From Escherichia coli (GTDB taxonomy: Bacteria; Pseudomonadota; Gammaproteobacteria; Enterobacterales; Enterobacteriaceae): a stretch of 64,000 nt of DNA. Shown here one piece after another: positions 33,001-36,000 of this stretch (within the stretch, counting starts at the first letter, position 1; each line of letters opens with the position of its first letter). The position numbers are program-made. The DNA lies in NCBI RefSeq assembly GCF_003334815.1, contig NZ_QOWO01000022.1, one strand, 5' to 3'.

Positions 33001-36000
33001 CTTCCTCCGGTGTGTCGGGTTGCTGTGGCTGTGCACTGACAGCGACGTTTCCTGCTGACGATGACGGGGCGGCTGGTTGTTCCGGTGTGCCGGCCCGGGG
33101 GGCTTCAGCTTTTGCCGTGACCGGCGCTTCCGGATGCGGTGTTTCAGCCGTACTGCCTGCAGTTTGCTCTGTTTCTGCTTTCGGTGACACAGGGGGGGCC
33201 GGTTGTGCCATTGTTGTCTCTTCCGGTGACAGGCGGTTGAGTTCCGGCGTGGGTCTGTGGGTGACGATGGCATCATGCGCCATCCCTTTCTCCTGGCGGA
33301 GTTTTTCCAGCGCAGCCCTCTGGACCGGGAGTTTCATGCGAACCTTGATGTCATATTCGACAATCAGCTGCATGGCTTTTTGTTTAAAGGCATCACTGCC
33401 GGTCAGCTCGATAACGCCGCCATAGAAGTTGGTGGCCACAGCAAGGGCAGCCAGGACCTTTTTGTCATCAGTGCTGGCACCATCCACCATTTCCAGACGG
33501 TTGAGTTTATCCAGGAATGCCGGTTCGCCGTCGACGCGGCAGAGCGCAGTATTGTCGGGTAACTCATCGTATGTAAGATTTTTAATAATCTCGTCCAGGT
33601 TGTGCCGCTGCGGACTGTTGGGCCGGCGGGGCGCAAAGATAATCGTGTCCGGTTCTGCTGACGATGTGTCTTCCGGGCTGGTTTCAGGTGGTGACGGTGG
33701 TGCTGCGGCCTCTGTCGCAGTTTCGGCCTCCGTAAGCTTGTTCTCCTGAATAACGGGAGGTTCGGCGGTACGTGATTTTCCACCGGTCAGAAAACGGCGC
33801 AGGCGGCTGAAAAGCGATGCTGTTTCAGGGCGGGCTGTTTCATTCGCTGTGCTGGTCTCAGTGGCAGACACTGGACGCTCTTCCTTCGGTTTATCTTCTG
33901 CCGTTGGTTCAGGGGTTGCCTGCTGTACGGGCTGAATTTCTGCAGGTTCAGAAGGTGAGGCTGTTTCTGCTGTATCGGTGTGGTGAGCTGTGGTCATCAC
34001 AGTAACATCAGCATTGAGGTCTTCCGCAACTGTGTCCAGGTCGTCATCGATAGCGGCAGCGGCACTCTCTTCACCTGTATCAGTGGCAGACATAACGCCC
34101 TCTTCCTGAGGTTTATTTTCTTCCGTTGGTTCAGGGGTTGCCTGTTGAACAGGCTGCATCCCGGCAGGTTCAGAAAGTGTCTTTGTCTCCGCGTTGTCGG
34201 TGCTGTGAACAGTGGCATTCCCCGGAGCATCAGCATTGAGGTCTTCCGCAAATGCGCTCCAGTCGTCAGCGCTGCCCATGGAGACCTGCTGTGGTTCTTC
34301 AGGTTGCGTTGTGGCGGTGTGCTGTGTCCCGGTTGCGTCGGAGACGGATGTTTCCGGTGTGTCGTAACTCCGGAGGGCAGTGGTGGCGGAAGAGGTGTTC
34401 TCTGCGTCATTATCAGTAGCAGACACTACGTTCTCCTGTGGTTTATCTTTAGCCGATGGTTCAGGACTGGCCTGCTGCACTGGCTGAATCTCTGCAGGTT
34501 CAGAAGGTGAATCTGTTTCTGCTGTGCCGGTGTCGTGAGCCGTGGTCGTAACTGTGGCGTCAGCATTGGGTTCTTGTGCTAATACATTTCGGTCGTCAGT
34601 GGTGGCGGCAGAGGTATTCTTTGCGTTGCTGTCAATGGCAGAAACAGCATTCACCTGCGGTTCATTCGGGGAGGCTGTCCCTGCAGTTACCGACTGCAGG
34701 GATGCATATGCTGCATAGTCATCTTCATATGCCTGATTGTCTGTCTCTTCTGCAGGGATGTCATAAGGATGATTCTGTTCCGACACTGCCGGTTCAGGGG
34801 CTGTGCTCTGTCTGTTTTCAGGGTACACTTGTGGCTTCTCATCTTTTACCGGTGTGAATATCAGGTTGCCGATCACGATAGCTTCACGGCGGTCAGTAGT
34901 GTCATTGTTGGGCGTGGGGATACCGATATATTCTAACTGTGCGTTCATGGCTCGCTGAAAGGCGTCTCGTCCCCTGCTGGCGTCCAGGTCATTGAAATCG
35001 GTCAGTCCCTGTGCTTTTTCCGCCTCCGTAAAGGCCGGAATAATGACTTCGCCATGCGTGCTTGCGGCAGCTTTTTGGGCACTTGAAACACCTTTGTTAA
35101 TTTTCCGTTGATGGTCGTTGTCGGCACAGAAGACAAAGGGGCTGTCAGTCCAGATTTGGCGGGCATTTTCTGCCACGTCAATCATATTGCCGGCATCAAC
35201 TGTCATCAGAACCGGAAGGCCGGTGGCTTCGTGCAGGGAGGCTGCAGTTGCGTAACCTTCCGCAAATAACAGGGGACGGCCATTTTCCGGGGTTCCGAAG
35301 GTGAACCAGTTACCGGTTTTCTCTGAGTCTTTCAGAATGCGGGCATCCTTCCCGCCGGTGACAGGAATACGCTGGTATGAACGTATTTCTCCCCGGCTGT
35401 TACTGAAAGGGATGACGAGTTCATTCTTGTTATTCAGACGGACGCCCGGTGCGGCAAGGATCCCTTTTCGGGTCAGGTATTCATGCTCTGTTGCCTGTGG
35501 TAACTGGTTAATATAGGAGCGGGCATACCGGGCCTGTTTGTTGTACTGTTGCTGCAGTTTACGTGCGTTATCATCGCGCTGTTGCTGAGCGAATGCCCGC
35601 AGATGCAGTCTGGCCAGAGGATCGTGTTGTTCTCCGCCGGAAAATACCCAGTTTGTGGGACTGTCATCGGCGCTCCGGTAGTCGCGGTACCAGCCGGCGG
35701 GGCGCCCATCAAGATAGGCCTTGTATGCGCCACTTTTGGCCCCTTTTTTGTCATCCCGGGTGGCGACTCTGTGTATGGCGCCATCCATCTGTGGCAATCC
35801 CTGAATAACCAGTCCGGCGTTTTCCAGGACCTGAGCAAATTCGGTGACCGGATCGCCGGCATCCATCGACAGTTCCTGCGGCCGGGGTAACCAGCGCTCC
35901 AGCAGTGAAAGTTCGGTACCCGCCCGGGCATACCAGAGTTTTTTTTCTGGATCCCATGCGACAGCTTTGCGGCCATTTAACGGGGGGACTGCATTTTTTA

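Follow-up and report, generated by a model that had tools for sequence, protein, structure and literature searches.

Repeat units and length alleles in the acidic spacer of a Sog-type plasmid primase

The stretch of DNA analysed here (64,000 nt from Escherichia coli, NCBI RefSeq assembly GCF_003334815.1, contig NZ_QOWO01000022.1; hereafter the window) carries a sog-type plasmid DNA primase gene of 4017 nt (32039-36055), which encodes a protein of 1338 amino acids (aa) identical to WP_021554958.1. Three repeat units were found in the long acidic spacer that separates the primase domain from the C-terminal part of this protein. It is fairly likely that they represent an old in-frame triplication of a module of about 74 aa, that the disordered spacer is a length-tolerant tether, and that the number of units drifts by recombination or slippage. 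Positions are those of the window, and all features of the gene lie on the minus strand.

In the full-length protein, the equivalent of SogL, the spacer would tether the N-terminal Toprim primase to the LPD7 domain and the C-terminal part, and in a short isoform, putatively started at codon 410, it would make up the N-terminal ~390 aa. It most likely acts through bulk properties, being extended, flexible and strongly negative, and neither its exact sequence nor its exact length is probably required. A role of this kind would relax constraint and let the unit number drift. The unit number would shift by unequal recombination or slippage at short tracts of identity, yielding in-frame alleles of one to four units, the shortened ones recurring and staying rare. 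We infer that changes in spacer length are near-neutral.

Anatomy and history of the repeat array

A single array (33858-34268; period 222, 79% matches, score 534) was reported by Tandem Repeats Finder (TRF), the only one scoring 80 or more across the whole window, and a repeat search delineated three ungapped copies of 209 nt (33882-34090, 34104-34312 and 34434-34642), which are 68-76% identical and spaced by 222 and 330 nt. In the translation they correspond to three units that follow each other head to tail and in frame, namely R1 (aa 471-543, 73 aa; 34427-34645), R2 (aa 544-654, 111 aa; 34094-34426) and R3 (aa 655-728, 74 aa; 33872-34093). Their lengths are 219, 333 and 222 nt, each a multiple of three, and their scores against a hidden Markov model (HMM) of the unit are 127.6, 112.1 and 130.1, respectively. 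According to the alignment, R2 is a short unit plus a 37-aa insertion, which is common to all alleles of the IncK/Z group; R2 also holds the motif DDWSAFAEDL. Directly after R3 comes the degenerate head of a fourth unit, VSATETSTANETARPETAS (VSATETS...; aa 729-747; 33815-33871), which has the VSAT(D/E) head in common with the units.

Self-BLASTP of each protein gave no off-diagonal matches, and the repeats were scored by Smith-Waterman alignment against shuffles and by the unit HMM. The pairwise local-alignment scores of R1-R3 at the protein level range from 159 to 226, whereas shuffled units give 42-44 +/- 7 (z = 16-26); the degenerate fourth head resembles R1-R3 only weakly (z 1.3-4.6). The observation of repeats is confirmed as real and lies well beyond chance. 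The sequence-only reading had announced three or more imperfect repeats of 220-330 bp between the Toprim region and the C-terminal domain, and it is borne out by the three in-frame units, by the degenerate fourth head and by the position of the array between Toprim_3 (aa 264-364) and LPD7 (aa 839-922). The span that it gave, 33860-34600, locates the array correctly but falls about 45 nt short at its upper boundary, the array ending at 34645. The repeat peptide that it quoted, TAET.SPSEPAEIQPVQQATPEPT, is present in the translated units.

The units of the window gene are 68-79% identical at the DNA level, and the longest exact tract shared by any two of them measures 24 nt (TTGCGGAAGACCTCAATGCTGATG). 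Its copy in R2 (34228-34251) is identical to that in R3 (34006-34029), and it is the crossover site of the commonest deletion, of 222 nt. Two open reading frames (ORFs) in other frames overlie the repeats, one of 176 aa on the plus strand (33980-34510) and one of 137 aa on the minus strand (33997-34410); these are by-products of a repetitive, GC-biased coding sequence and not genes.

In diverged alleles, R2 and R3 match their positional counterparts better than their paralogues, and the insertion in R2 is shared by all; therefore, the triplication predates the split of the lineages, which are separated by a synonymous divergence (dS) of ~0.4. The sequences also indicate that units have exchanged parts while their number stayed constant: in the P0064 lineage (alleles of 1343 aa), the body of the unit at the R2 position is 83% identical to R3 of the window and 71% identical to its R2. 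A search with the unit profile gave 11 representatives among 1.84 billion proteins, and the four that were retrieved are all Sog fragments of this clade. On these grounds it was rejected that other proteins share the module, which is a lineage-specific expansion in the Sog spacer of the IncK/B/O/Z branch.

Divergence along the gene is mosaic. Compared with the sister allele L004 (CP088704.1), dS is lowest in the C-terminal third (0.057), intermediate in the N-terminal domain (0.21) and in LPD7 (0.23), and highest in the acidic region (0.42). Allele L002 is identical to the window gene in its 5' half and has diverged from it in its 3' part. Such a pattern suggests that plasmid lineages have recombined within sog.

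Copy-number alleles and the question of assembly artefacts

Copy number was surveyed in the 120 closest protein clusters at 90% identity, with units counted by the unit HMM. Three units were found in ~72 of the 120 cluster representatives, two in 43, four in 4 and one in a single representative, so that the suggestion of the sequence-only reading that copy number may vary between isolates holds among close relatives. The variant proteins fall into length classes of ~1154, 1261-1267, 1335-1365, 1405 and 1458-1463 aa, with one, two, three or four units by HMM; all 120 are full-length and in frame, and all copy-number variants keep the same operon context. Alleles with three units greatly outnumber all others, and this form has been kept in diverged lineages. 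Two-unit alleles occur in many isolates, for instance P0114 (24 contigs), P0006 and P0058 (15 each). All shortened alleles together account for ~131 contigs, and the window allele by itself for at least 1000.

Alignment of the spacers revealed at least four distinct two-unit junctions and one single-unit junction. The commonest, JA, corresponds to a precise loss of 222 nt from the window gene, the crossover lying inside the 24-nt tract shared by R2 and R3. In allele L012 it comes with no further mismatch to the window gene over 3795 nt, and the same junction was found in two parental backgrounds (L012/L017 and L016). Junction JB lies on a shared tract of 22 nt, junction JC on one of 12 nt with a deletion of 219 nt and no other mismatch in the spacer, and junction JE on one of 13 nt with a loss of 552 nt that leaves one unit. 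With tracts of 12-24 nt, slippage largely independent of RecA would be expected. Two tblastn matches (H290 and H308) that seemed to be ungapped two-unit alleles proved to be three-unit genes of 4023 and 4017 nt.

In the other direction, five complete plasmids carry alleles of four units (1463 aa); pDR19cip_scFOS and pPK8275-82kb, for instance, are circular IncK2/Z plasmids with four units, in which a period of 360 bp is repeated 2.0-2.4 times. Smaller changes are also seen. A mini-repeat of 36 bp (GATACCGGTGAAGAAAATGCCTCTGTGGCTACCGCT, encoding EENASVATADTG) is present in one, two and three copies in the complete plasmids L005, L006 and L004, whose genes measure 4026, 4062 and 4098 nt. In L004 it occupies positions 1930-2026 (CP088704.1), which correspond to the start of R2 in the window (~34390-34426); the window allele has no such mini-repeat array. 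The second, Pro/Ala/Glu-rich spacer of the protein is length-polymorphic as well, allele P0002 (1296 aa) having an in-frame deletion of 42 aa at about aa 954-995. The indels of 36, 126, 219, 222, 360 and 552 nt are all multiples of three, and the gene was rejected as a phase-variable contingency locus because every change preserves the frame.

The PLSDB database contains ~440 plasmids of this sog clade, in ~90 of which the match spans were sampled; these show small in-frame indels only and would, taken alone, wrongly imply a fixed unit number. None of the tested one- and two-unit alleles (five junction types) was found in PLSDB or in the complete RefSeq E. coli genomes (~330). All of the one- and two-unit alleles come from draft assemblies, and none has long-read confirmation. 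Besides, the positions of the commonest junctions coincide with the longest tracts that the units share (22-24 nt), where an assembler working with small k-mers could jump. These facts favour the explanation that the copy-number differences, or even the three copies of the window, are collapses or expansions introduced by assembly and that there is no true polymorphism, which is nevertheless very unlikely. As for the window, the concern that its repeat number might be an assembly artefact is answered by at least 28 complete plasmids (typed IncK2/Z, MOBP and MPF_I), deposited independently, that carry all 4017 nt of its allele with 100% identity; therefore, neither collapse nor expansion has occurred in it, and its units, which are 68-79% identical, have no more than 24 exact nt in common.

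For the shortened alleles, too, an artefact is made improbable by several points. At JC and JE the tracts fall below 21, the smallest k-mer that short-read assemblers are known to use. Logan contigs are built from 31-mers that occur at least twice (PMC12424806), and a junction on the 24-nt tract must therefore exist in the reads. The same shortened alleles recur in both the NCBI and the Logan assemblies of many isolates, and the four-unit alleles and the 36-bp variants come from complete circular plasmids. Since the shortened alleles are rare, about two would be expected among the complete genomes, so that their absence there is without significance. The one- and two-unit alleles are regarded as real but rare.

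Disorder, constraint and possible roles of the spacer

The acidic region comprises ~390 aa. Between aa 410 and 800, the net charge is -57, the isoelectric point (pI) is 4.05, 65% of the residues are Pro, Glu, Thr, Ala, Ser or Gln and 13% are hydrophobic, in keeping with the acidic, Pro/Glu/Thr/Ala-rich repeats described from sequence alone. In an AlphaFold2 (AF2) model of aa 340-940, aa 383-816 have a per-residue confidence (pLDDT) below 50 and essentially no secondary structure, and LPD7 is folded at a pLDDT of 75-87; the segment of aa 383-816 is thus predicted by the model to be without stable structure. The sole helix predicted inside the disordered region, with low confidence, is a short basic segment directly after the repeats, LFSRLRRFL (LFSRLRRFLTGGKSR; aa 748-756; 33788-33814), whose LF(S/T)R is kept in IncI1 Sog.

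Sequence constraint was compared by the ratio of nonsynonymous (dN) to synonymous divergence (dN/dS), which reaches 0.42-0.50 for the acidic region, compared with 0.14-0.15 for the N-terminal domain and 0.17-0.30 for the C-terminal domain; for the conserved C-terminal region of aa 1021-1338 it is 0.15-0.30. Against L004, the values for the acidic region, the N-terminal domain and the C-terminal region are 0.42, 0.14 and 0.17. The spacer thus evolves quickly, at a dN/dS of ~0.45, the folded domains having 0.15. The dN of the acidic region is ~6 times that of the N-terminal domain. Judged from these values, constraint on the acidic region is relaxed, though not absent.

Two acidic-aromatic motifs stand out in this aromatic-poor region. 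The first, EDDYAAYASLQS (34691-34726; aa 444-455), lies in the acidic segment preceding the repeats (aa 411-470; 34646-34825; net charge -10, pI 4.05) and is conserved across the IncK/Z group; the second is DDWSAFAEDL of R2 (34235-34264; aa 598-607). Their counterparts in IncI1 Sog are EEYEDYSAYQEL and DKDWREFEAEL, respectively. Both could be short linear interaction motifs.

The spacer is possibly also part of a second gene product. R64 produces SogL of 1255 aa and SogS of 844 aa by means of an in-frame start (PMC6112013), which places the SogS start at SogL codon 412, and the coordinates of sogS in pESBL agree with this position (PMC4288162). The aligned codon in the window gene is codon 410, a GTG (34826-34828). 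At this position, ATG is found in IncI1 and many relatives; Met is encoded in 50 and Val in 77 of 127 sequences, each Val codon seen at the DNA level being GTG. Upstream of codon 410 stands GAGAAG, a poorer Shine-Dalgarno match than the GAGGA of IncI1. The GTG is a putative start of a short, SogS-equivalent isoform. With such a start at codon 410, the repeats would be a linker in the long isoform only and the N-terminal part of the short one.

Further starts within the array have also been considered. The repeats might act at the level of DNA or translation, with ribosome-binding sites and starts at the unit boundaries giving rise to a nested set of N-terminally shortened Sog proteins. Codons 544 (GTG, 34424-34426), 655 (ATG, 34091-34093) and 729 (GTG, 33869-33871) are indeed preceded, at suitable distance, by AGGAG, GAGG and AGGA. 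Nevertheless, L004 and L007 have GTT, GCG or ATA at the same places, and as these sister alleles do not conserve the start codons, internal translation starts at the unit boundaries were rejected. The Shine-Dalgarno-like strings are probably a by-product of coding for Gln-Glu-Glu. A regulatory role of the DNA itself was rejected as well, promoter and terminator matches in the region being no better than chance. Altogether, this explanation is extremely improbable.

Several observations weigh against a tether of free length and sequence. The core of the unit (NAD, H, TAET, SEPA, QPVQQA, EP, DKP.E) is 80-90% conserved among 108 distinct units and dN/dS is below 1; therefore, the sequence of the spacer is not free to drift, and the units may carry a specific motif besides any role as a spacer. 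From the time when the lineages diverged (dS ~0.4), three units have been retained, the shortened alleles being so few beside the window allele, and the failure of the latter kind of allele, the shortened one, to turn up in complete plasmids or genomes may be a sign of selection, as opposed to neutrality, on length or unit number. In addition, the AF2 model was built on a shallow alignment of 12 sequences.

Most of these observations would also suit an alternative in which the units form a multivalent array of a docking motif (core TAET..SEPAxxQPVQQATPEP..DKPxE and/or DDWSAFAEDL), whose copy number tunes export or plasmid establishment and is kept near three by selection. By analogy with the Glu-rich signals of Dot/Icm substrates, the partner might be the type IVB coupling complex; a replication protein of the recipient is the other candidate. 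Moreover, the deletion alleles recur yet stay rare, with none in ~160 complete window-like records, a DW..F..(D/E)L motif is also present in IncI1 Sog, and the type IVB system of IncI1 exports hundreds of copies of Sog (PMC8406263). However, IncI1 Sog, the transport of which has been shown, has neither repeats nor a match to the unit profile (best domain independent E-value 0.01, score 2.5), the unit is not found outside the Sog clade among the 1.84 billion representatives, and the two-unit alleles, present in many isolates, must be at least viable. We hold a docking array to be unlikely. The complete proposal, in which the core of the unit and/or DDWSAFAEDL docks the type IVB coupling complex or a recipient-cell protein, the unit number sets Sog export or establishment, and selection near three acts while recombination makes variants of one, two and four units, is a distinctly doubtful one.

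The length-tolerant tether is preferred also in view of what is known from related plasmids. The SogS part is needed for transfer in IncI1 pESBL (PMC4288162), and sogLS is needed in the I-complex plasmid pMS7163B (PMC10286972). IncI1 Sog works without repeats, which argues against a strict requirement for them.

Gene context and comparison with known systems

WP_021554958.1 is annotated as 'LPD7 domain-containing protein' or 'DNA primase', and NCBIfam has no model for the 1338-aa protein. From its N-terminus, the protein contains a DUF5710 domain (aa 6-57; 35885-36040; Pfam PF18974, E 3.3e-9), the Toprim_3 primase domain (aa 264-364; 34964-35266; PF13362, E 7.7e-6) and, beyond the acidic spacer, LPD7 (aa 839-922; 33290-33541; PF18821, E 7.1e-11). 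A second Pro/Ala/Glu-rich spacer (aa 936-1020; 32996-33250; 79% Pro/Glu/Thr/Ala/Ser/Gln, pI 4.24) links LPD7 to a conserved C-terminal region (aa 1021-1338; 32042-32995), for which no Pfam or NCBIfam match was obtained. Within Toprim_3 lies the motif EGYATA (aa 266-271; 35243-35260), invariant in the Sog alignment. This motif reportedly defines the I- and P-type primases (Strack et al. 1992).

The gene is flanked by traK (icmT-like) and traL/traM in a transfer operon of the MPF_I (Dot/Icm-like) type. The identical locus of pMRY16-002_3 reads traJ, an ORF of 96 aa, sog, an ORF of 116 aa at the position of traL, and homologues of DotI/IcmL (traM) and DotH/IcmK (traN); the 96-aa ORF beside sog is annotated as IcmT/TraK family in sister plasmids. 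An end-to-end alignment of the protein with Sog of IncI1 (1255 aa) gives 58% identity, and the last 130 codons of the gene are 76% identical at the DNA level to a record annotated as sogL. The domain, the EGYATA motif, the position between traK and traL and the full-length alignment uphold the earlier call of a Sog-type Toprim primase, and on this sequence evidence the gene at 32039-36055 can be assigned to the Sog-type primases of I-complex (IncK2/Z) conjugative plasmids.

Conjugation machines have few natural protein substrates, of which Sog is one, and extended-spectrum beta-lactamase (ESBL), AmpC and virulence genes are spread by its carriers, the I-complex plasmids. The IncK/B/O/Z branch has built its Sog spacer from a lineage-specific triplicated module, and the natural in-frame series of one to four units could be used to ask how spacer length or motifs affect export, primase delivery and conjugation. 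No description of this allelic series was found in the literature searched. The spacer is, in addition, a length-polymorphic marker within otherwise near-identical plasmids, and differences in sog gene length between draft assemblies should be checked rather than dismissed. For the rest, sog is a well-known gene and its length polymorphism, though real, is rather ordinary; it leaves the known picture of Sog function unchanged and gives no pointer to a new kind of system.

The closest known system is SogL/SogS of the IncI1 plasmids R64 and ColIb-P9. Its gene occupies the same position in the MPF_I (type IVB) operon, and the two proteins share the order of DUF5710, Toprim with EGYATA, acidic spacer, LPD7, second Pro/Ala spacer and conserved C-terminus. 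The start of IncI1 SogS aligns to the same codon as codon 410 of the window gene, ATG in the former and GTG in the latter (PMC6112013, PMC4288162). The spacer of IncI1 Sog is, however, shorter (~310 aa) and without detectable internal repeats (self-similarity z 2.0, and neither TRF nor the unit profile gives a match). At the DNA level, only the ends of the two genes match in megablast and the middle is unalignable. The surroundings also differ, as seen when 36056-36409 of the window is compared with L008 1-495 and L009 1-480: a phospholipase D/nuc gene lies immediately upstream of sog in IncI1 plasmids, whereas in the plasmid group of the window traK (icmT-like) abuts sog with no nuc gene between them. 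Primase activity and transfer of Sog into the recipient have been documented for the IncI1 plasmids ColIb-P9 and R64 only (PMC8406263, PMC7213743, PMC6112013).

TraC1 of the IncP plasmid RP4 and Pri of the IncM plasmid pCTX-M3 are, like Sog, Toprim primases encoded in transfer regions with long and short in-frame products, and TraC1 and Sog proteins are carried into the recipient (PMC7213743, PMC6112013, PMC5512222). Nevertheless, TraC1 has its Toprim on the C-terminal side and an ArdC-like DUF1738 domain (PMC7213743), and Pri is only 23-30% identical to SogL (PMC6112013). By its domains, Sog of the window also resembles the polyvalent proteins of Iyer et al. (2017), large multidomain proteins that combine an LPD domain with a DnaG-type primase and are delivered early into the recipient (PMC5512222); LPD7, Toprim and DUF5710 are found here in one polypeptide of a mobile element. 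The catalogue of these authors is one of globular domains, and the word 'linker' is absent from its main text (PMC5512222). A spacer built of repeats and varying in their copy number lies outside that description.

Gain and loss of whole units is known from the streptococcal surface proteins alpha C and Rib, in which long in-frame units are gained and lost by recombination and give rise to length alleles among isolates. The repeats of alpha C and Rib are near-identical, folded and surface-exposed, and they vary under immune selection. In contrast, unit variation in the Sog of the window is rare and no positive selection is seen (dN/dS <1), and the units themselves are 55-70% identical, disordered and cytoplasmic or translocated.

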